This document shows positions 1-5,734 of a stretch of DNA of 5,734 nt, piece after piece. This stretch comes from a virus: IMG/VR virus record IMGVR_UViG_3300017613_000266, positions 1 through 5,734 of that record; one strand, written 5' to 3'. The stretch's first letter is position 1. The number at the start of each line of letters is the position of its first letter. Made by a program: the position numbers and the translations under genes. The notes below the pieces were generated by a model. It worked only from the letters and a program-made list of their open reading frames with translations, did no database searches and was not told the DNA's origin.

Positions 1-99
1 AACATAATTATTCTTAGTCCTAGTAATATAATTTCTATTCTCATCATTTATCCAATTAGCTCCAATTCCTGGATTCTTACTCATAAACTGCATCGGCTT
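1..99. repeat. Terminal direct repeat, copy 1: exact duplicate of 5636-5734, consistent with the end overlap of a circular contig
   Basis: Base-by-base comparison shows 1-99 (aacataattattctt...aaactgcatcggctt) is identical to 5636-5734. This implies a 5635-nt unit. One minus-strand reading frame passes through the repeat. Confidence 0.95.
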
Positions 100-798
100 C
101 TGTCTTATCTCTTTCTCTTCATCCCACCAATGTCCAACCTGCTTCATCATATAACCTGCTACATATGCACACCTATGTCTATTCACCTCTCCAATACTAA
201 CAAACCCTTTACCCCATATTTCTTCTAACACTGTACTATACTCTTCTCCGTGTATCGGATCATACTTATACCATTCTCTCGGCAAATTCCATATCAATAT
301 ATGCCAATGACTCCTCTCTGTATCATCCTCACCGTACTCACCACAGCCAAAATAACGCATCTTAGGGCTCCATTTTCCAGTCTTCTCACTCTTTTTAACA
401 TATCTTATAGCTTCATCCCACATCTTCGTATCTCCGGCCTCTGGCGCACCTTTTACCTTCTTGAACAACGTCACGTTGTCATTCATCACTTTCGACCTAC
501 ACTTCTTCAAAAAAAGTTGTATATCTCTTAGCTCTAAACTATTCACCAATCTTGTATAATCTCCGCCCCACTTCTTACTATCTTTATCCCACAACGTTCC
601 ACTTACTCCATGCTCATTCCTATACGGTAAATACTTTTCATCATAAGTCAACGTCACAAATCTTGCGGTCTCTGCAACGTCTGTCTCATTCATAATCCTA
701 AATGTCCATACACTCTGCTTATTCTGCAAACATATAACACACTTACCACAAGGGACCTTCTGACCACCCCGTACATACATCTCACTTACACATTTCAT
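1..798 (-). CDS. VP4: Rolling-circle replication initiator (Microviridae VP4, phiX174 A-like HUH endonuclease), N-terminal 266 codons. It continues across the circular junction into 5300-5635, giving 377 aa in total.
   Basis: Hand translation of the minus strand from the ATG at 798-796 down to base 1 finds no stop: MKCVSEMYVRGGQKVPCGKCVICLQNKQSVWTFRIMNETDVAETARFVTLTYDEKYLP... It contains the Cys cluster CGKCVIC, RCR motif 1 FVTLTY (643-660), the HUH motif HWH within SHWHILIW (301-309), and the two-tyrosine motif YVAGYMMK (142-165), which has the same Y-x3-Y spacing as phiX174 protein A. An in-frame TAA lies five codons upstream of the ATG. The frame matches the 5300-5728 ORF through the repeat, because 798-93=705 is divisible by 3. 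Confidence 0.9.
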   Translation of the reverse strand, partial: MKCVSEMYVRGGQKVPCGKCVICLQNKQSVWTFRIMNETDVAETARFVTLTYDEKYLPYRNEHGVSGTLWDKDSKKWGGDYTRLVNSLELRDIQLFLKKCRSKVMNDNVTLFKKVKGAPEAGDTKMWDEAIRYVKKSEKTGKWSPKMRYFGCGEYGEDDTERSHWHILIWNLPREWYKYDPIHGEEYSTVLEEIWGKGFVSIGEVNRHRCAYVAGYMMKQVGHWWDEEKEIRQKPMQFMSKNPGIGANWINDENRNYITRTKNNYV

Positions 799-863
799 TT
801 CAATACAGGCTTAGTCCTTCTTACAAATATACTCCTTCGCTTCCGCTTCCTTTTCTTACTCAT
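795..863 (-). CDS. 22-aa extremely basic peptide, candidate J/ORF8-like DNA-binding packaging protein (not in the supplied ORF track)
   Basis: Hand translation gives atg agt aag aaa agg aag cgg aag cga agg agt ata ttt gta aga agg act aag cct gta ttg aaa tga = MSKKRKRKRRSIFVRRTKPVLK, with 12 of 22 residues K/R and none acidic. A strong Shine-Dalgarno GGAGGA (869-874) sits 5 nt upstream of the ATG. The ATG overlaps the TGA of the 65-aa ORF (ATGA, 860-863), and its own TGA overlaps the VP4 ATG (ATGA, 795-798), so it exactly fills the apparent gap. Confidence 0.5.
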   Translation of the reverse strand: MSKKRKRKRRSIFVRRTKPVLK

Positions 864-1057
864 ATCAATCCTCCTTTCTTCAATTTAATTTTAGCCAATT
901 CTCTCTGCAATTCATCTATATCTCTTCTAGCATCCTCTGCAAAACCTATTAACTGCTTAATGTACCACATTTGCTGTCCAGTCCATACTTTATCACCTTG
1001 TATTTCTCCTGATAATTCCTCCAGGCTAATTGCCTGTTCTTTGCTTTTATCATCCAT
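860..1057 (-). CDS. Hypothetical protein, 65 aa
   Basis: ORF from the supplied track (MDDKSKEQAISLEELSGEIQ...). The Shine-Dalgarno-like AAGAGGA lies about 7 nt upstream of the ATG at 1057. It shares strand and polarity with all core genes, starts 13 nt after the preceding ORF, and ends in an ATGA overlap with the next ORF. I recognise no motif. Confidence 0.6.
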   Translation of the reverse strand: MDDKSKEQAISLEELSGEIQGDKVWTGQQMWYIKQLIGFAEDARRDIDELQRELAKIKLKKGGLI

Positions 1058-1070
1058 GTCAAGTCCTCTT

Positions 1071-1244
1071 TCATGTCAAAAACTTTACATCATCATCCTC
1101 ATCATCCAACCATGCCTCTATCGCTCCATCAACTATTCTCACTATAGCATCATCTACTTCAGTCTCTGTCTTACTTGCTGCCTTTTCTAGTACCCTTAAT
1201 ACTATCGGCCATACTGCTCTTATTACATTCTTTACTATGTTCAT
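1071..1244 (-). CDS. Hypothetical protein, 57 aa, with an amphipathic/hydrophobic N-terminus and an acidic C-terminus (not in the supplied ORF track)
   Basis: Hand translation gives MNIVKNVIRAVWPIVLRVLEKAASKTETEVDDAIVRIVDGAIEAWLDDEDDDVKFLT. A strong Shine-Dalgarno GAGGAGGA sits 6 nt upstream of the ATG at 1244-1242. The ATG overlaps the TGA of the upstream 52-aa ORF (ATGA at 1241-1244). The stop is TGA at 1071-1073. Confidence 0.6.
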   Translation of the reverse strand: MNIVKNVIRAVWPIVLRVLEKAASKTETEVDDAIVRIVDGAIEAWLDDEDDDVKFLT

Positions 1245-1399
1245 ATCAATTCCTCCTCTGGTGTTTCTTTAGTTACTATTTCCAATATCAACTGCATCCA
1301 CTTCAATCCATCTATCTCTGTTACATTCTCTTCTATTCTCTTCCACATCTCTATGTGAACTCTTACCAACATCTCCTGTCGATCTTTGCTCAATTTCAT
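1241..1399 (-). CDS. Hypothetical protein, 52 aa (not in the supplied ORF track)
   Basis: Hand translation gives MKLSKDRQEMLVRVHIEMWKRIEENVTEIDGLKWMQLILEIVTKETPEEELI. The ATG at 1399-1397 overlaps the TGA of the 87-aa ORF (ATGA at 1396-1399). Its own TGA overlaps the next ATG. AAGGAAG lies about 7 nt upstream. Confidence 0.55.
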   Translation of the reverse strand: MKLSKDRQEMLVRVHIEMWKRIEENVTEIDGLKWMQLILEIVTKETPEEELI

Positions 1400-1659
1400 A
1401 GCTCTACTTCCTTATTTTCCTTAATAAACTTCTGCAAACTTTCCTTAGTCTCATTATCCATCTGCGTTACCATAACTCTATACGCACTGTTTCTATAAGT
1501 ACTCTTATTCCCAGCCATATAAATCGTCACTTCTAGGGGGGTTTTGATCTTATCAAGATCCTTCATTACTCCTAACGCCACATTAGCGTTTCTTACATTC
1601 TGAGCCAACAATTCCTGCTCACTAAATTCTCCTTTAAAAACTGTCTTTTCGTCTGCCAT
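1396..1659 (-). CDS. Hypothetical protein, 87 aa
   Basis: ORF from the supplied track (MADEKTVFKGEFSEQELLAQNV...). It is co-oriented with the core genes, and its stop is part of an ATGA overlap with the next ORF. There is no clear Shine-Dalgarno. The start lies inside copy A of a 36-37-nt repeated leader. I recognise no motif. Confidence 0.6.
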   Translation of the reverse strand: MADEKTVFKGEFSEQELLAQNVRNANVALGVMKDLDKIKTPLEVTIYMAGNKSTYRNSAYRVMVTQMDNETKESLQKFIKENKEVEL

Positions 1660-1687
1660 AACATTTCATTTATTAGTTATTATTACT
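1651..1687. repeat. Imperfect direct repeat, copy A (pairs with 1762-1797), covering the leader plus the first three codons of the 87-aa ORF
   Basis: Given strand: gtctgccataacatttcatttattagttattattact here versus gtctgccataacatttcatttttagtttatattact at 1762-1797. The first 21 nt are identical, and the rest differs by a few substitutions and one indel. Confidence 0.85.
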
Positions 1688-1770
1688 AATTTACCTATTC
1701 GCTTTAAATCGCGATTCTTTCTAATCTCTTTACGGATGCGACGCATCCTTGTTCCATAACTGTCTGCCAT
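1666..1770 (-). CDS. 34-aa basic peptide, a second candidate small DNA-binding protein (not in the supplied ORF track)
   Basis: Hand translation gives MADSYGTRMRRIRKEIRKNRDLKRIGKLVIITNK, with 12 K/R and 3 D/E. The ATG at 1770-1768 lies 22 nt after the VP2 stop. The TGA at 1666-1668 lies 6 nt before the 87-aa ORF start. There is no clear Shine-Dalgarno. It shares the leader and the MAD start with the 87-aa ORF through the direct repeat. Confidence 0.4.
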   Translation of the reverse strand: MADSYGTRMRRIRKEIRKNRDLKRIGKLVIITNK

Positions 1771-1797
1771 AACATTTCATTTTTAGTTTATATTACT
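1762..1797. repeat. Imperfect direct repeat, copy B (pairs with 1651-1687), covering the VP2 stop, the leader and the first three codons of the 34-aa ORF
   Basis: See copy A. On the minus strand both copies read agtaata...aaatgaaatgttATGGCAGAC. Confidence 0.85.
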
Positions 1798-2758
1798 GTA
1801 TCTCTGGGACAAACTTAGGTACTCCGCCCCATCCTTTATTACCATCTTTTCCACCTTTTAACTTATAGGCTCCTTTACCAATCTTCTTATCACCACGTCT
1901 GTCTTTCCACTTTCCTGTTGCTACATCTTGCATAAAATTCCTGAAACTATAATCATTACCACTGTATAACTTTCCAAACAGTCCAGGCAATATTTTATTA
2001 GGTATCTTATATCCAAACTTATTTATATGACTCCATTCCTGACTATTCAAATTTACTACACTATCCAACTGTCTTATCTGTGCCTGTCCATGCAACAATC
2101 CCATTATCTTCTCAAACTCTAAATACTCATTACTTATTATCTGTGCTGCGTTCCTATATCCAATACCTTTAATATCCAAATTATTTATCAATCCTCTCTG
2201 TGTCATCAAACCTGTCTCTATCCTGACCTGTTGTTTCTTCTCTGGCCTGTCTTCTTGCTCATAGCCCCAACGACCCTTCTCTCTATTCAGCTCAAATCTG
2301 TTTCTATCATTCTGTATTCCTACTGCATCTGCTTGGCTTAACTTTAAATCCCTTTCAGCTCTCATATTATCCAAACTCTGACTCTGGTTCTTCAAATTCA
2401 TATAATCACCTATCGGATCCACATTTTTCATTGTATTCTCAACATTCGCCGGCGCCACTCCTTGTGCAGGCGCTCCACTATTACCACCACCCATACCTTC
2501 TAATGCCAACATAGGGTGTAAACCCGCATCACTCATCCTCTGCATCTGCGCCTCTGGCGTATTATACTGATTCTGCATATGCCACATATTTTCGTTCCAG
2601 TTCAACTGCTTCTGCTGTAACTTCTTATTTGCTTTATTAGCTGCTAACTGCCCAAAAAAACTTCCTGCGCTGCTTATAGCTGCACCCCCTAACATTGCTA
2701 ATGGTCCCATACCTTGTACATTTTGTGATTCTGCTATATTCTGAGTTCTCCAATTCAT
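1793..2758 (-). CDS. VP2: DNA pilot / minor capsid protein (Microviridae VP2, phiX174 H-like)
   Basis: This is a 321-aa ORF. It has a Gly/Ala-rich N-terminal segment (GMGPLAMLGGAAISSAGSFFGQLAA) followed by NWNENMWHMQNQYNTPEAQMQRMSDAGLHPMLAL. As I recall, this matches the conserved Y-N-(S/T)-P-x-x-Q-x-x-R-x-x-x-AGLNP block of gokushovirus-type VP2 proteins. AGGAG (2761-2765) sits only 2 nt before the ATG, so the exact start is somewhat uncertain. Confidence 0.8.
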   Translation of the reverse strand: MNWRTQNIAESQNVQGMGPLAMLGGAAISSAGSFFGQLAANKANKKLQQKQLNWNENMWHMQNQYNTPEAQMQRMSDAGLHPMLALEGMGGGNSGAPAQGVAPANVENTMKNVDPIGDYMNLKNQSQSLDNMRAERDLKLSQADAVGIQNDRNRFELNREKGRWGYEQEDRPEKKQQVRIETGLMTQRGLINNLDIKGIGYRNAAQIISNEYLEFEKIMGLLHGQAQIRQLDSVVNLNSQEWSHINKFGYKIPNKILPGLFGKLYSGNDYSFRNFMQDVATGKWKDRRGDKKIGKGAYKLKGGKDGNKGWGGVPKFVPEIQ

Positions 2759-2769
2759 AGCTCCTACAT

Positions 2770-2806
2770 ATTACAACTTTTTTACCTTAATTACAACTTT
2801 TTTTTT
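2770..2806. promoter_or_regulatory. Tandem 14-nt repeat (attacaactttttt twice, 20-nt period) immediately upstream of VP2; possible promoter or operator
   Basis: Exact copies lie at 2770-2783 and 2790-2803, and the second runs into a T9 tract (2798-2806). On the coding strand this reads AAAAAAGTTGTAAT twice. It can also be read as TTGTAA-N17-TAATAT, a weak sigma70-like -35/-10 pair, although the implied start site would truncate the VP2 ribosome-binding site. Confidence 0.3.
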
Positions 2807-2810
2807 CATC

Positions 2811-3095
2811 ACCTCACGATGACTTTAGTGATCGTGTGTGATATACACTTGCCGCTAGGCTTGAGGGCCGAACATCACGAAGTGAGGCCCTCCATTTCTT
2901 TCCGAAAACCCTCCTCATGTAGAGGGTTTTCTTTTACCCGCGGTGGACCCAGTCATGAGACTGAGTTCCTCCCCGGGTAAGTATTGAGCACGTTCTCTCT
3001 TGTTGTATACGTGCTCTCTGACACTATTTGCTTTTAGAAGGGAGAAATTTCTTCCTCCCTTCCGAGACTCAACGTCACAATTACGGCAGACGTTC
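2811..3095. other. GC-enriched, hairpin-dense intergenic island (structured DNA/RNA element of unknown function)
   Basis: Stem-loops found by eye are listed here. (1) 2863-2892: gagggcc/ggccctc with a tcac-gaa-gtga tip. (2) 2904-2931: gaaaaccctc/gagggttttc. (3) 2934-2980: ttacccg/cgggtaa outer stem with a cagtc-atga-gactg tip. (4) 2986-3016: gagcacgt/acgtgctc. (5) 3037-3062: gaagggag/ctcccttc. Weaker ones lie at 2815-2836 and 3071-3093. My hand count for 2811-3140 gives about 50% G+C. Confidence 0.6.
2904..2940. terminator. Intrinsic-terminator-like hairpin with flanking A and T tracts (potentially bidirectional)
   Basis: A 10-bp stem (gaaaaccctc 2904-2913 with gagggttttc 2922-2931) closes an 8-nt loop. 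On the given strand it is followed by ttttctttt. On the coding strand the same stem is followed only by ttttcgg, and those T residues can pair with the upstream A tract. Confidence 0.45.
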
Positions 3096-3136
3096 CCCCT
3101 CTTGCGTGCGTGTATTTCTCTGCGCGCGTGCATCAT
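2915..3136 (-). CDS. Doubtful 73-aa Arg/Lys-rich ORF lying over the hairpin island
   Basis: ORF from the supplied track (MMHARREIHARKRGNVCRNCDV...), with about 17 basic and 7 acidic residues. Its TGA overlaps the ATG of a further 34-aa Arg-rich ORF (2814-2918) as ATGA. Three points count against it: its codon composition (CGC, GCG) is unlike the other genes, the ribosome-binding site is weak, and it coincides with the stems. Confidence 0.2.
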   Translation of the reverse strand: MMHARREIHARKRGNVCRNCDVESRKGGRNFSLLKANSVREHVYNKRERAQYLPGEELSLMTGSTAGKRKPST

Positions 3137-3410
3137 CTCTCACTTCTGCCTCTTGACGTTTCCACTCTTCGAATTCTGCTCTTTCTTTTCGAGCTTCTTC
3201 TTCCTCAGCTTCCTGTCGTTCTCTAGCTTTTGTCTGTTCATCTTCGTACCTCCTTTGTTCTAACTCTTTCAACTCATTAGCCACCAATTCTCTTCCTGTT
3301 AGCCTGTCTTGTCTTATCTGCTGAGCATATACTGGCTGCTTCAGCATCTCATTATTCTCAGCCCAGTAATCTCTACTGAACTGGGCTCGGTATCGGTCTT
3401 CCTTTTTCAT
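3081..3410 (-). CDS. Hypothetical protein, 109 aa, with a highly charged E/R/K-rich C-terminal half; possibly the distal part of a VP3-like scaffolding gene
   Basis: ORF from the supplied track (MKKEDRYRAQFSRDYWAENNEMLKQPVYAQQIRQDRL...ERQEAEEEEARKERAEFEEWKRQEAE...). It is co-oriented and overlaps the 76-aa ORF by 38 nt in the +1 frame. The ribosome-binding site is weak. Confidence 0.55.
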   Translation of the reverse strand: MKKEDRYRAQFSRDYWAENNEMLKQPVYAQQIRQDRLTGRELVANELKELEQRRYEDEQTKARERQEAEEEEARKERAEFEEWKRQEAEVRDDARAQRNTRTQEGERLP

Positions 3411-3603
3411 ATCTATCCATTAATTCTTTAATACTTTTACTTTGTCCAGGCACTGTTAAACTTACCCAATCATCTGGATCATATTCACCTTTTACATCAT
3501 CTGCACTAAATCTCTCTTCTCTTGTTAGCTTCTTACATCGGCCTTGTGCCGATCCTATCCACTTACGATCTTTTCCCATCGTCAATTCTTTCAATGTACT
3601 CAT
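3373..3603 (-). CDS. Hypothetical protein, 76 aa; possible VP3-like internal scaffolding protein (N-terminal part)
   Basis: ORF from the supplied track. A strong Shine-Dalgarno AGGAGGAG lies directly upstream of the ATG at 3603, which is 13 nt after the VP1 stop. The segment SLTVPGQSKSIKELMDRYEKG loosely resembles, from memory, the SLTxQ...DINxI...TG block of gokushovirus VP3. Confidence 0.6.
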   Translation of the reverse strand: MSTLKELTMGKDRKWIGSAQGRCKKLTREERFSADDVKGEYDPDDWVSLTVPGQSKSIKELMDRYEKGRPIPSPVQ

Positions 3604-3616
3604 ATCTCCTCCTATT

Positions 3617-4246
3617 TTATACTGGTATATCTGTCAAATACATAGGTCTTACAAACTGCGCATCATTATACACTGTATAATACAAATGATGCTCTGTTCC
3701 CGTACTCTGAAATATTCTCAGATTTTCATCTTCTCCATAATCAATTATTGCTCCTGCTGATCCTAAAGCTGTCGGCGCTCCTGTTATATCATGTACATCA
3801 GCCATATGAAAATCATCTAATCCTCCTGCTCCAGCATCCATTGCAAACTCACCACAAACATAACTTGGATAATACTTATATTCAGCCCATCTTTGTTGGT
3901 ATCCCCAAGTTCCATCGTTCGTTCCTGCACCACCATCTAGTTCAAAGCCTTTCTCCATGTTAAGTATTTCCTGATCTCCAATTCCTTGAAAATACGGATT
4001 ATAAAATTCCGTTCTGTCTCCTGTTGCACCCTTAATAAAAAACCTATCTATCCTATTACCATACGCCGTCCTTGGCACCACACTCATCAAACTTATTACA
4101 ACACCAAATTCTGTAGCATTCAACCTAACATTATTAGTACTTCCCTGCACTCCTGCCAATCCTGCCTTATATCCTGCTGGCACCTGTACATCATCCGCTG
4201 CTGTTGCGTGCGTCAACACGTCTTGCTGGTTAACCACACTATTCAC
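3617..4246 (-). CDS. VP1: Major capsid protein (VP1/F family), C-terminal fragment downstream of the frame break
   Basis: This 209-aa ORF has only a GTG at its 5' end and no ribosome-binding site. Its frame is closed by a TAG (4271-4273) immediately upstream of the homopolymer. Together the two fragments span 1687 nt (3617-5303), one base more than a multiple of 3. Removing one base would give 561 aa, a typical microvirus capsid size. Confidence 0.85.
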   Translation of the reverse strand: MNSVVNQQDVLTHATAADDVQVPAGYKAGLAGVQGSTNNVRLNATEFGVVISLMSVVPRTAYGNRIDRFFIKGATGDRTEFYNPYFQGIGDQEILNMEKGFELDGGAGTNDGTWGYQQRWAEYKYYPSYVCGEFAMDAGAGGLDDFHMADVHDITGAPTALGSAGAIIDYGEDENLRIFQSTGTEHHLYYTVYNDAQFVRPMYLTDIPV

Positions 4247-5303
4247 ATTGGTTCTGATCTTTCCCCCCCCCTAAATAACGTGCGGACTTATCTCTGAAGT
4301 CCGGGTTCTGTACCCCAAAGATACTCAATAACCAATCCTCATAGTCGTCACTTCCTAGCCTGTTCTCTGCTTCCAAAAACCTTGTCAACGCTTGCGTCCT
4401 TCTCAGCTCCATTATCTCTAACTCTGATGTTCCCGGTAACTGCGTTGCATCTTTCCAACTTATATCTCTATTAGTACCTGCTTCTTCCATATACTGACTA
4501 CCACCCGGAAATGTTACATCTCCTGCCGCTGGCACACTATTATCTGCTGCATCTTCCCATTGTAACTTTCTATCATCATTAGCATACATATCCAGGTCTA
4601 GTATCACATCATCAGCACTACCTTTATACGCCTGCGGCGTCGCACCCCAAAAATAGTCCATCTCTTTATGCACTCTCCATGGCGCTCCCATTATCTGCCT
4701 TGCTGTCGCTCCCTGTCGATCTCCTCCCTCTAATGTTATTTGCCAATTACTTGTTGGCCCACACAATCTTTCTACTAACCACTCGTTTCTGTAGTACTCA
4801 TCCACTATCAACCAATAGGCTATCTGCTTTATCAAATTAATTTCTATCGCACTTGCTACCGTCTCTGCATTATCTATTATCGGCAATCCAAAATAACAAT
4901 TCAAACTATCTTGGTCGTAACAACTAGCTTGCACGTCTACTGTATCAATCGTCACATGCGGCACTATGTCATTCATAAATATATTCTCCGGATCACCTTG
5001 TATAAAACTCTCCCAATCACTGTTCGTAATCCCTATCCTAGGCATAACCAATCTATTAGGCACCCAATGATGGTGCACATAACAATCAATCCTTGTCATA
5101 AATGGTCTTAACACTGGCGCATAATCAATTCTCACATTACTTTTCAAACTCAAACTATCCCCAGGCACAATCTCATAATGTCCAATCGGCATCAAATAAC
5201 CTAATTGTCCACTACCCATCACATAATGACTCAAATCAATTCTACTTTTCTCCGGCCTTTTAACCGGAATCCTTCTTGCTGGATTTCTTTCTATCAAATT
5301 CAT
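4239..5303 (-). CDS. VP1: Major capsid protein (VP1/F family), N-terminal fragment ending just after the G9 run
   Basis: This is a 354-aa ORF. Its N-terminus IDLSHYVMGSGQLGYLMPIGHYEIVPGDSLSLKSNVRIDYAPVLRPFMTRIDCYVHHHWVPNRLV follows the Microviridae capsid pattern (DLSH...G.L.P...E..PGD...R...P...FFVPxRLVW-like). The segment FGVQNPDFRDKSARYLGGG resembles the conserved ...RLQRPEYLGG block as I recall it. The ATG overlaps the VP4 TGA (ATGA at 5300-5303). Confidence 0.9.
   Translation of the reverse strand: MNLIERNPARRIPVKRPEKSRIDLSHYVMGSGQLGYLMPIGHYEIVPGDSLSLKSNVRIDYAPVLRPFMTRIDCYVHHHWVPNRLVMPRIGITNSDWESFIQGDPENIFMNDIVPHVTIDTVDVQASCYDQDSLNCYFGLPIIDNAETVASAIEINLIKQIAYWLIVDEYYRNEWLVERLCGPTSNWQITLEGGDRQGATARQIMGAPWRVHKEMDYFWGATPQAYKGSADDVILDLDMYANDDRKLQWEDAADNSVPAAGDVTFPGGSQYMEEAGTNRDISWKDATQLPGTSELEIMELRRTQALTRFLEAENRLGSDDYEDWLLSIFGVQNPDFRDKSARYLGGGKDQNQCE
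4263..4271. repeat. C9 homopolymer (G9 on the coding strand) at the VP1 frame break
   Basis: The given strand reads tt ccccccccc taaataacg. The coding strand reads cgt tat tta ggg ggg ggg aaa gat cag aac caa tgt gaa tag. It is the only homopolymer inside the 33-nt window in which the two VP1 frames are both open. Confidence 0.95.
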
Positions 5304-5734
5304 AACTTTCCCTTTTTATTCAATAATACATTTTCCTTTATCCTAACAGCCTCCGCTTCTTCTCTTCTAATCCTCTGATCACTCCCCCCAATATCTCCAA
5401 GCTCTTCACCTTGGACTCTCTCCTCTTTCGCTCTCTCCTGCTTTCTTTCGGCTTTCCTTCCTTTTCTAATTGCCATTGTCTCTTCCTTGCTTCGTAGTCG
5501 TACCCCAGGTGTCTCACCTCTAACGGTCCTTCCTTCTTCCGCTTCGTACTCGTACTCCCATTTTTTCTTTTCATCTCCATAGATTTTTTTCTTATAATAC
5601 GTCCCGATCGGCTGCTTATAACCTCCTTCACAACCAACATAATTATTCTTAGTCCTAGTAATATAATTTCTATTCTCATCATTTATCCAATTAGCTCCAA
5701 TTCCTGGATTCTTACTCATAAACTGCATCGGCTT
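5300..5734 (-). CDS. VP4: Replication initiator VP4, C-terminal part (same gene as 1-798; 5636-5734 duplicates 1-99)
   Basis: The frame is open from 5734 down to the TGA at 5300-5302. It contains SKNPGIG and GYKQPIGTYYKKKIY, which correspond to the PGIG and PRYY-type blocks I recall from microvirus VP4 proteins. A charged E/R/K-rich tail of about 92 aa follows. The stop overlaps the VP1 ATG. Confidence 0.9.
   Translation of the reverse strand, partial: KPMQFMSKNPGIGANWINDENRNYITRTKNNYVGCEGGYKQPIGTYYKKKIYGDEKKKWEYEYEAEEGRTVRGETPGVRLRSKEETMAIRKGRKAERKQERAKEERVQGEELGDIGGSDQRIRREEAEAVRIKENVLLNKKGKL
5636..5734. repeat. Terminal direct repeat, copy 2 (identical to 1-99)
   Basis: See copy 1. Confidence 0.95.

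Follow-up and report, generated by a model that had tools for sequence, protein, structure and literature searches.

The window, the whole 5,734-nt stretch analysed here (IMG/VR virus record IMGVR_UViG_3300017613_000266, positions 1 to 5,734), holds a circular microvirus genome of 5,635 nt with a terminal redundancy of 99 nt, the first 99 nt recurring at the window end. All genes lie on the - strand, in the order VP4 (replication), VP1 (capsid), a 76-amino-acid (aa) open reading frame (ORF), a 109-aa protein and VP2 (DNA pilot protein), several small ORFs coming after VP2. Between the genes for the 109-aa protein and VP2 lies an island, which an earlier reading made from the sequence alone had singled out as the only long gap in the genome. 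This was borne out, the structured stretch covering 2759-3131. We conclude that the island is the single non-coding control region of this genome and that it descends from the common ancestor of a microvirus clade not described before; the reading favoured below for its conserved core, with reserve, is that of a replication origin.

The island and its three modules

The island differs from its surroundings in composition. The G+C content of 2811-3140 is 50.0%, with 22.1% G on the + strand, as the sequence-only reading had counted by hand, against 39.8% G+C and 10.4% G in the rest of the genome; other 330-nt windows have a mean of 10.3% G (standard deviation 2.0, maximum 15.2%). That reading was right that G is low elsewhere, but the baseline of about 7% that it gave, taken from two 60-nt samples, was slightly too low. 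Its claim that the strand skew of the genes is lost exactly at the island was upheld, the GC skew going from about -0.5 to -0.09 here and nowhere else.

The island also folds far better than expected by chance. For 2790-3150, none of 100 dinucleotide shuffles was as stable on either strand (-138.9 kcal/mol and z = -8.8 as gene-sense RNA; -133.2 kcal/mol and z = -9.75 for the given strand). In a genome-wide scan of 320-nt windows, two island windows were the sole outliers (z = -12.6 and -6.9), all others lying between -3.3 and +2.0. The seven stem-loops listed from the sequence alone were all recovered where they had been placed, the five called strong with z = -2.7 to -6.3 and the two called weak with z = -1.8 to -2.5.

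Counterparts of the island were found in eight relatives (L002, L003, L005, L006, L007, L008, L009 and L042), reached through homologues of VP2 and of the 109-aa protein; their VP2 is 37-69% identical to that of the window over the aligned part. In all eight, a gap of 237-490 nt occupies the corresponding position, between a gene for a protein of about 100 aa and VP2, and these gaps are also structured (z = -3.3 to -8.9, and -1.3 in L006, where the gap is cut by the contig end). In addition, a near-identical contig (L001, 98-99.5% overall) carries an identical island. Pairwise comparison divided the gap into three modules: a 5' core and a 3' leader, both common to the genomes, and a middle section that is different in each. 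The description of the island as compositionally foreign was therefore misleading: the core is ancestral to the clade and only the middle, about 145 nt, is lineage-specific. Since the core is as rich in G+C (50.0%) as the middle (51.7%), composition reflects hairpin content rather than foreign origin. The weak direct repeat proposed to flank the island is attributable to chance, CATCAYCTC with at most one mismatch occurring 8 times versus 7.2 expected.

Database searches with the island were negative. The four weak, snoRNA-like matches returned from Rfam (cmscan, E <= 10) all lie outside it, ARAGORN found no tRNA or tmRNA in it, and blastn gave no match in 50,697 phage records, G4, phiX174 and Ff among them, or in 72,556 plasmids (PLSDB).

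Features of the island and its neighbouring genes (window coordinates)
Feature	Position	Strand	Basis or remark
B1, two alternating purine/pyrimidine tracts (GCACGCGCGCA ... ACACGCACGCA)	3103..3131	-	DNA-conserved in 8/8 aligned genomes
B2, 6-bp hairpin AACGTC...GACGTT	3071..3094	-	predicted here in all 8 aligned genomes
B3, 12-bp hairpin with GAAA loop (RNA fold)	3036..3063	-	pairing kept, sequence free to vary
Conserved single-stranded linker AAAAGCAAATAGTGTCAGA	3017..3035	-	CAA-AT and G..GAG invariant in 8 genomes
B4, 8-bp all Watson-Crick hairpin GAGCACGT/ACGTGCTC	2986..3016	-	9 genomes; z = -4.4
H5, 47-nt imperfect hairpin	2934..2980	-	z = -6.2
H6, 11-bp hairpin (RNA fold; 10 bp as DNA) with A-rich/U-rich flanks	2904..2931	-	z = -4.4; lineage-specific
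H7, G+C-rich hairpin	2863..2892	-	z = -3.1 to -3.7; lineage-specific
Small hairpin GCC-TAGC-GGC after H7	2851-2860	-	not conserved
H8, hairpin opening the VP2-proximal module	2808..2842	-	most relatives have a hairpin of unrelated sequence just before the A-run
A/U-rich VP2 leader: A-run, then two copies of (A)6-9 GTTGTAAT	2770..2807	-	aligns with relatives
Relic ATG-TAG (2764-2769), new Shine-Dalgarno sequence TAGGAGCT (2759-2766), VP2 ATG (2756-2758)	2756..2769	-	comparison with relatives
VP4, replication protein	start 798, wraps to 5300	-	Pfam REP_ORF2-G2P
VP1, capsid protein	5303-3617	-	Pfam Phage_F; frameshift-split
76-aa ORF	between VP1 and 109-aa ORF	-	gene order
109-aa protein, upstream neighbour of the island	3081..3410	-	clade-conserved, motif EFEEWKRQ; without assigned function
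VP2, DNA pilot protein, downstream neighbour of the island	1793..2758	-	PHROG pilot-protein families, E-values to 1.9e-17

The core (3131-2986, - strand) is about 145 nt long (about 110-145 nt) and consists of an alternating purine/pyrimidine repeat, B1, followed by three hairpins, B2, B3 and B4. The B1 consensus is CACGCACGC-RTAAY-GCRCGCACGC. In the window B1 lies within the C-terminal tail of the 109-aa ORF; in L005 and L007 it is found downstream of the stop codon, and its being kept there argues that the constraint is not on protein. B2 carries GTCTGCC (3085-3091), of which TCTGCC is invariant in eight genomes, and its loop holds the TAA stop of the 109-aa ORF (3081-3083); taken alone this hairpin is weak (z = -1.8 to -2.5). 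The linker between B3 and B4 lies within the most conserved 30-mers of the genome, and from 3039 to 2991 identity is at least 28/30 in at least five relatives, the joint top value of the genome. The B4 loop of 15 nt, ATACAACAAGAGAGA (2994-3008) in the window, is near-invariant within each of two subtypes, GAGCACGT-ATACAACAAGAGAGA and GCGCAC-TAATATATCAAG..., and such constancy of loop and linker implies recognition of their sequence. An exact-pattern scan of IMG/VR with both B4 subtypes gave 0 matches. The B4 18-mer had 17 metagenome and 15 genome matches, none extending past the 18-mer, with about 35 expected by our own estimate, so that all of them are put down to chance.

At B3 it is the pairing that persists. 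A hairpin of 11-15 bp is formed from unrelated sequence in each of the eight aligned genomes, 4 of its 11 pairs being changed on both sides. Read gene-sense, B3 has 1-3 G.U pairs per genome, 18 in total versus 2 on the other strand, and a summed RNA energy of -157 kcal/mol versus -114. The fold is accordingly selected on the gene-sense strand, as viral single-stranded DNA (ssDNA), if that strand is packaged, or as mRNA; known microviruses package the gene-sense strand. The B4 stem, being Watson-Crick throughout, is symmetric between strands, and its second pair shows a compensatory change from A-U to C-G between the subtypes. Over the whole core, 80.4% of cells were paired in the MAFFT alignment versus 41-54% when the 3' partners were slid (by 1-3 columns; 38-56% over the range of alignments), and 3 of 500 shuffles reached the observed value; a model-fitted alignment gave 82.2% paired, reached by 1 of 500 shuffles. 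Seven pairs have changes on both sides, so that the compensatory change by which the sequence-only reading had proposed to recognise conserved structure is seen in the core hairpins.

The covariance model R1 found exactly one copy in each genome of the clade, always on the gene strand and none elsewhere; in L006 this comprised the 3' part of B4 only, truncated by the contig end. It had no match in G4 (including the F-G region), Chp2, phiMH2K, SpV4 or unrelated loci. The above findings show that the core is a structured non-coding element, conserved with covariation, with a gene-sense polarity of B3 and a modular layout. Two further pairings were not retained: the closing helix by which RNAalifold would join B1 to the linker varies in register between genomes and is unsupported by the A/T variation of the linker, and a pairing of the B4 loop (UACAAC) with the VP2 leader (GUUGUA) is lost in L002 and L042.

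Downstream of the core, the middle section (about 2843-2985) holds hairpins at 2863-2980 in the window and differs in every relative. H5 was absent from every relative, and an exact-pattern scan of IMG/VR did not find it. H7 is limited to the window and L001 and likewise gave no match in IMG/VR. H6 resembles a terminator, more so on the + strand, the only one that the terminator scan flags; gene-sense, its stem is followed by just UUUU. The slot occupied by these hairpins contains small ORFs of 52-61 aa in some relatives (2284-2442 in L042, 1381-1545 in L008, 2770-2955 and 2967-3134 in L007), followed in L042 and L008 by a hairpin of their own. The product of the L008 ORF resembles a coiled coil, and no significant family match was obtained for the slot ORFs of these three genomes.

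The VP2-proximal module opens with H8, which has a clear counterpart in L009, L008, L007 and L003. The leader that follows is 88-94% identical between the window and L008 or L009, and the homologous segment also aligns among L002, L003, L007, L008 and L009. In relatives the VP2 ATG stands directly 3' of TTGTAAT, without a Shine-Dalgarno sequence. The window has about 12 extra bases here, which create a stop (ATG-TAG), an AGGAG Shine-Dalgarno sequence and a new ATG for VP2; judged from this comparison of sequences, a small insertion appears to have changed how VP2 translation starts in the window. A reading of the leader as a sigma-70 promoter was discarded: it scores 8/12, under the scan threshold, and its -10 element would overlap the VP2 ATG.

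Candidate functions of the core

By analogy with known systems, we favour a reading in which the core would be a cis-acting replication-origin region that works on the gene-sense single strand. We hold it tentatively, a little short of calling it probable, and both the replication role and the factors that would bind the core are ones that we infer. Complementary-strand origins of G4 and phiX174 are hairpin clusters in the intergenic region beside the capsid gene. In the clade, single-strand-binding protein would coat the circle after DNA entry while stable hairpins stayed as duplex landmarks; the host priming machinery would recognise these hairpins, the invariant B4 loop and the linker serving as sequence-specific contacts, and priming at the core would start complementary-strand synthesis. 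The same region may also contain the nick site of VP4. The slot 3' of the core is filled by each lineage in its own way, with hairpins in the window and small ORFs in some relatives, and is followed by the A/U-rich leader from which VP2 is translated. The sequence-only reading had offered a complementary-strand origin or primosome entry structure among its possible roles. Conservation across the clade and the compensatory changes in the hairpins agree with that proposal, which is still the best supported of the three roles, but the element falls outside the G4 and phiX174 origin families to which it had appealed.

Several observations weigh against an origin. No characterised origin (G4, phiX174, Ff or plasmid single-strand origins) was matched by sequence or by model. 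The conserved CTG, within GTCTGCC, lies 5' of the hairpins, unlike that of G4, which lies 3'. No promoter-like site was present in 2759-3143, and the genome-wide number (16 versus 16.7 expected) is not above chance; priming by RNA polymerase, as in an Ff-type origin, is thereby disfavoured. About 17% of the B3 pairs are G.U, which fits RNA better than DNA, and the region, lying inside an array of co-oriented genes, is probably transcribed. Finally, the covariation statistics are modest because the comparison comprises only nine genomes in two subtypes.

The sequence-only reading had also offered acquired cargo, with two Arg-rich coding frames as the competing view; that the island encodes small basic proteins was not borne out by the comparison with relatives. 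The 73-aa (2915-3136) and 34-aa (2814-2918) ORFs on the - strand are open in the window, and L009, L002 and L042 likewise have no stop in the 73-aa frame across the core, where a 104-aa gene was called in L002. The frame, however, contains stops in L008, L005 and L007, and the spacing from TCTGCC to B4 (72, 75, 75, 75, 79, 77, 74 and 73 nt across genomes) differs by non-multiples of three, so that the frame is not kept; along B3 the "protein" is wholly altered while base pairing stays. No relative has the sequence that holds the 34-aa ORF and the 3' half of the 73-aa ORF, neither product has a PHROG or Pfam match, gene callers leave the gap empty in L001, L003, L005 and L009, and a J-like basic peptide of 22 aa is already encoded elsewhere (863-795). 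The two frames are thus neither kept open nor in register in relatives and are not conserved genes, and we regard a coding island as very improbable. The 109-aa ORF itself formally ends at 3081, 50-60 nt inside the island, its tail reading through the conserved non-coding blocks. This tail (ARTxNARTQEGERLP) appears "conserved" in some homologues; in L003 and L008 the ORF terminates after B1 and before B2, and in L005 and L007 the protein stops earlier. Acquisition or mobility of the G+C-rich middle alone (about 2843-2985), as DNA in a permissive slot unrelated to the core function, is less far-fetched, though still improbable: the section is found in the window and L001 only, relatives differ there, with small ORFs in L042, L008 and L007, and its G+C content of 51.7% stands above the 39.8% of the genome. 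Neither IMG/VR nor the phage and plasmid collections yielded a source, however, the section is without terminal repeats, the proposed flanking repeat being due to chance, and the core, at 50.0%, is equally G+C-rich. Integration by XerC/D at dif-like sites has reportedly been proposed for enterobacterial gokushovirus prophages, and strings similar to GCGCATAAT occur in B1 of L002, L042 and L005 and beside B4 in L006. We give almost no credence to B1 as such an attachment site: no 28-bp dif-like site (two 11-bp arms, 6 bp apart) was found in the window within 3 mismatches, and its B1 is without the CATAAT part and has no XerD arm at the required 6-bp spacing. A search with the core 18-mer of 185,579 bacterial and archaeal genomes gave only chance matches, and thus no prophage copy.

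Two readings that use the core itself deserve more weight, although each seems to us rather unlikely. In the one, B4 and its flank would be the rolling-circle (plus-strand) origin, VP4 binding the hairpin and nicking its loop with the B1 repeats as accessory sites. Nick sites of HUH enzymes usually take the form of a G+C-rich, all Watson-Crick stem with a conserved loop, and B4 fits this form in its covarying stem, conserved loop and symmetry between strands. VP4 matches Pfam REP_ORF2-G2P and has the phiX-like HUH and Y-x-x-x-Y motifs (HWHILIW and YVAGYMMK). On the strand complementary to the genes, the B4 loop of L005, L006 and L007 reads CTTGATAT; that of L006 and L007 has the 9-mer ACTTGATAT in common with the phiX174 nick region (CAACTTG/ATATT), and the window reads CTTGTTGTAT at that position of the loop, again on the complementary strand. 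The large intergenic region of Chp2 contains a 14-bp hairpin whose loop is TCTACTTGATC, and the GCACGC of the B1 repeats resembles the stem arm GCACGT of B4. The phiX-like motif, however, occurs only on the complementary strand, by convention the one that is not packaged; the gene-sense loop reads CAAG rather than CTTG. Moreover, these matches are post hoc, in sequence that is A/T-rich and in part palindromic; the origin of phiX174, within gene A, does not take the form of a hairpin; and a VP4 nick site leaves B2 and B3 unexplained. The other reading, of similar doubtful standing, places the element in mRNA: the hairpins that follow VP4-VP1-p76-p109 would be 3' stabilisers, partial terminators or processing sites that cut read-through into VP2, and the leader would set VP2 translation. 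It would account for a B3 that tolerates G.U but not A.C, on the gene-sense strand only, for the location between co-oriented genes, for a leader that adjoins a VP2 ATG lacking a Shine-Dalgarno sequence in relatives, and for the terminator-like H6, and intercistronic hairpins act as weak terminators and stabilisers in phiX174. Against it, B3, B4 and H8 all lack a conserved U-tract after the stem on the gene-sense strand, a hairpin that serves as a stabiliser has no need of a 15-nt loop and a linker that are near-invariant, and Rfam gave no match in the island even at E <= 10. In four genomes, in addition, the tail of the upstream ORF runs through B1 and half of B2, and ribosomes translating it would unfold them. 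Of the structured RNA or VP2 5' untranslated region envisaged from the sequence alone, what stands is the A/U-rich leader in the last 50 nt or so at the VP2 start and the gene-sense G.U pairs of B3; an Rfam family it does not have. By comparison with the combined cis functions of Ff, the origin, nick-site and RNA roles would not be mutually exclusive.

The orientation of the nick-like motif, together with A-rich fourfold-degenerate sites, leaves a small chance, which we judge to be slim, that B4 is nicked by VP4 on the complementary strand and that the clade packages the antisense strand (a "negative-sense" microvirus), the island then being an Ff-like combined origin. With such packaging, B3 and its G.U pairs could be an RNA element. 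A T-rich, C-poor signature is usually ascribed to the encapsidated strand. We compared the genome and L002-L009 with L044-L052, which include six other microviruses. On the gene strand of the clade, A3 is 0.45-0.78 and T3 0.11-0.27 at fourfold-degenerate sites (AT skew +0.30 to +0.75), L006 being an exception with both at about 0.41; the T-rich, C-poor signature thus sits on the antisense strand in most members. Chp2 (T3 = 0.51) and SpV4 (T3 = 0.65) show the opposite, T-rich pattern, and phiMH2K and two uncultured microviruses are likewise A-skewed. As the fourfold AT skew of other microviruses ranges from -0.70 to +0.33, and that of the six from -0.70 to +0.29, composition is not decisive for the packaged strand, and we dropped it as a guide. 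The A-rich sites could stem from host codon usage or from packaged-strand polarity. Should the antisense nick motif prove real, it would be necessary to check whether all Microviridae package the coding strand, as is assumed.

Two other hairpin-like sequences bear on plus-strand initiation. In Chp2 (L044, NC_002194), a 198-nt region after VP3 has a perfect 14-bp hairpin at about 2903-2945 whose loop contains, on the gene strand, the 7-mer ACTTGAT of the phiX174 nick region; the hairpin comes after short A-rich repeats. Going by its sequence, it could be the gokushovirus plus-strand origin, which is an observation of our own and not an established origin. In the window, the palindrome GGATCTTGATAAGATC (1541-1560, - strand, in the 87-aa ORF) contains CTTGATA on the gene strand. 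At this position CTTGATA occurs only in the window and L001, nearby 30-mers being moderately conserved (24/30), and the palindrome is a weak alternative candidate for the plus-strand origin.

Genome context and further observations

VP1 and VP4 are only about 30% identical to any phage record, which marks an unclassified lineage without an annotated relative. The whole genome matched phage records (blastn) only in some 70-85 nt of VP2, and the 109-aa protein had no match in phage records (tblastn) and no Pfam or PHROG family match. Searches of IMG/VR and of JGI metagenome contigs with VP2, the 109-aa protein and its alignment gave no confirmed relatives. Between the window (about 250-470) and L001 (3181-3460), VP4 contains a strongly diverged, mosaic stretch unlike the rest of this near-identical pair. 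This suggests recent recombination in the replication gene, the island having stayed identical.

VP1 is broken into ORFs of 354 and 209 aa at a run of nine G on the - strand (nine C on the + strand; 4263-4271). If one G is removed, VP1 is restored as a protein of 561 aa, colinear with the L009 VP1 at 70% identity; the L001 contig ends at the same nine-G run. The split is probably a homopolymer error of sequencing or assembly, a real frameshift being also possible. The contig of L009 (ENA ERZ28669879, 18,386 nt) repeats a genome of about 5.5 kb head to tail, with at least three copies visible, and this concatemer is probably an artefact of long reads or of rolling-circle amplification.

An unannotated and highly basic ORF of 22 aa, MSKKRKRKRRSIFVRRTKPVLK (795-863, - strand), overlaps the start of VP4 through ATGA and is kept in L009, L002, L042, L003 and L008. 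Its product is probably the DNA-binding peptide of the clade, like phiX174 J or gokushovirus VP8. Through a 30-nt direct repeat (1651-1680 and 1762-1791; 87% identical, 111 nt apart), the 87-aa gene has its start and ribosome-binding site (ATGGCAGAC) in two copies, the additional one standing at the head of a basic 34-aa ORF (1666-1770) that lies between VP2 and this gene. In relatives VP2 and the 87-aa gene are only 4-25 nt apart.

Comparison with known systems

Microviruses rank with the most abundant ssDNA viruses of gut and environmental viromes, and to our knowledge the start of either DNA strand has been mapped in none of them outside the phiX174/G4 group. The clade described here offers a compact and clearly bounded origin candidate, in which one hairpin is constant in shape but not in sequence and another is constant in sequence, and which comes in two natural subtypes. 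The island also marks a slot for small accessory genes, which helps annotation, in that its hairpins need not be called as ORFs, and could help engineering.

The complementary-strand origin of G4, in the F-G intergenic region, is primed by DnaG primase alone. Like the core, it groups three hairpins within about 110-140 nt of non-coding DNA next to the block of capsid genes, and it also folds beyond its shuffles (z = -4.7 when re-folded here, versus -8.8 for the window island). In G4, however, the primer copies hairpin I, the CTG start being on its 3' side, whereas the sole conserved CTG of the core lies 5' of all three hairpins and none is conserved 3' of B4 in the aligned genomes, so that the layout differs. 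Nor do the two resemble each other in sequence or by covariance model, and the search of phage records gave no homology to the origins of G4, St-1 or alpha3. The n' (PriA) site of phiX174 consists of one hairpin of about 55 nt, and it is chiefly the shape that is recognised. As in the island, this is a hairpin structure of the viral strand in an intergenic region, and the island would likewise be an entry point for host replication proteins; the core differs in keeping three hairpins and conserved single-stranded sequence, and shares no sequence similarity with it.

The single-strand origins of rolling-circle plasmids (ssoA, ssoT, ssoU and ssoW) are, like the island, non-coding, orientation-specific and highly folded over about 150-300 nt, with a conserved loop motif, but the island resembles none of the 72,556 plasmids. 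A sequence like the CS-6 motif, TAGCGG (2852-2857), is present only in the small window hairpin at 2851-2860, which relatives do not conserve. Another comparison is with the large intergenic region of Gokushovirinae (VP3-ORF8 in Chp2), which has about 200 nt after the structural genes, short repeats, a long hairpin bearing a distinctive loop, and small terminal hairpins. It differs from the island in that ACTTGAT stands in the Chp2 loop on the gene-sense strand, the corresponding motif of the clade being on the complementary strand, and in giving no covariance-model match.

In reekeekee- and roodoodoo-microviruses, intergenic hairpins with compensatory stem changes and identical loops have been tied tentatively to the initiation of the negative strand (PMC9865509, section 3.8). 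Like the core, they are clade-specific, and an ORF-like conservation is broken by random stop codons (PMC9865509). Compared by description, one such hairpin or a pair of them separates the replication-protein gene from the capsid gene or another gene in those genomes, which measure about 4 kb, whereas the 109-aa gene and VP2 are separated by a three-hairpin core with its repeat, a variable slot and the leader of VP2.

As for a region with several purposes, the intergenic region of Ff (M13/f1/fd) is the best analogy. Ff belongs to another virus family, has no sequence match to the island, and its minus origin contains a promoter-like duplex, used by RNA polymerase, of a kind that the island is without. 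The intergenic region of Ff combines both origins, the packaging signal and a terminator and, like the island, it is the sole large non-coding region of a small ssDNA phage and is packed with hairpins.

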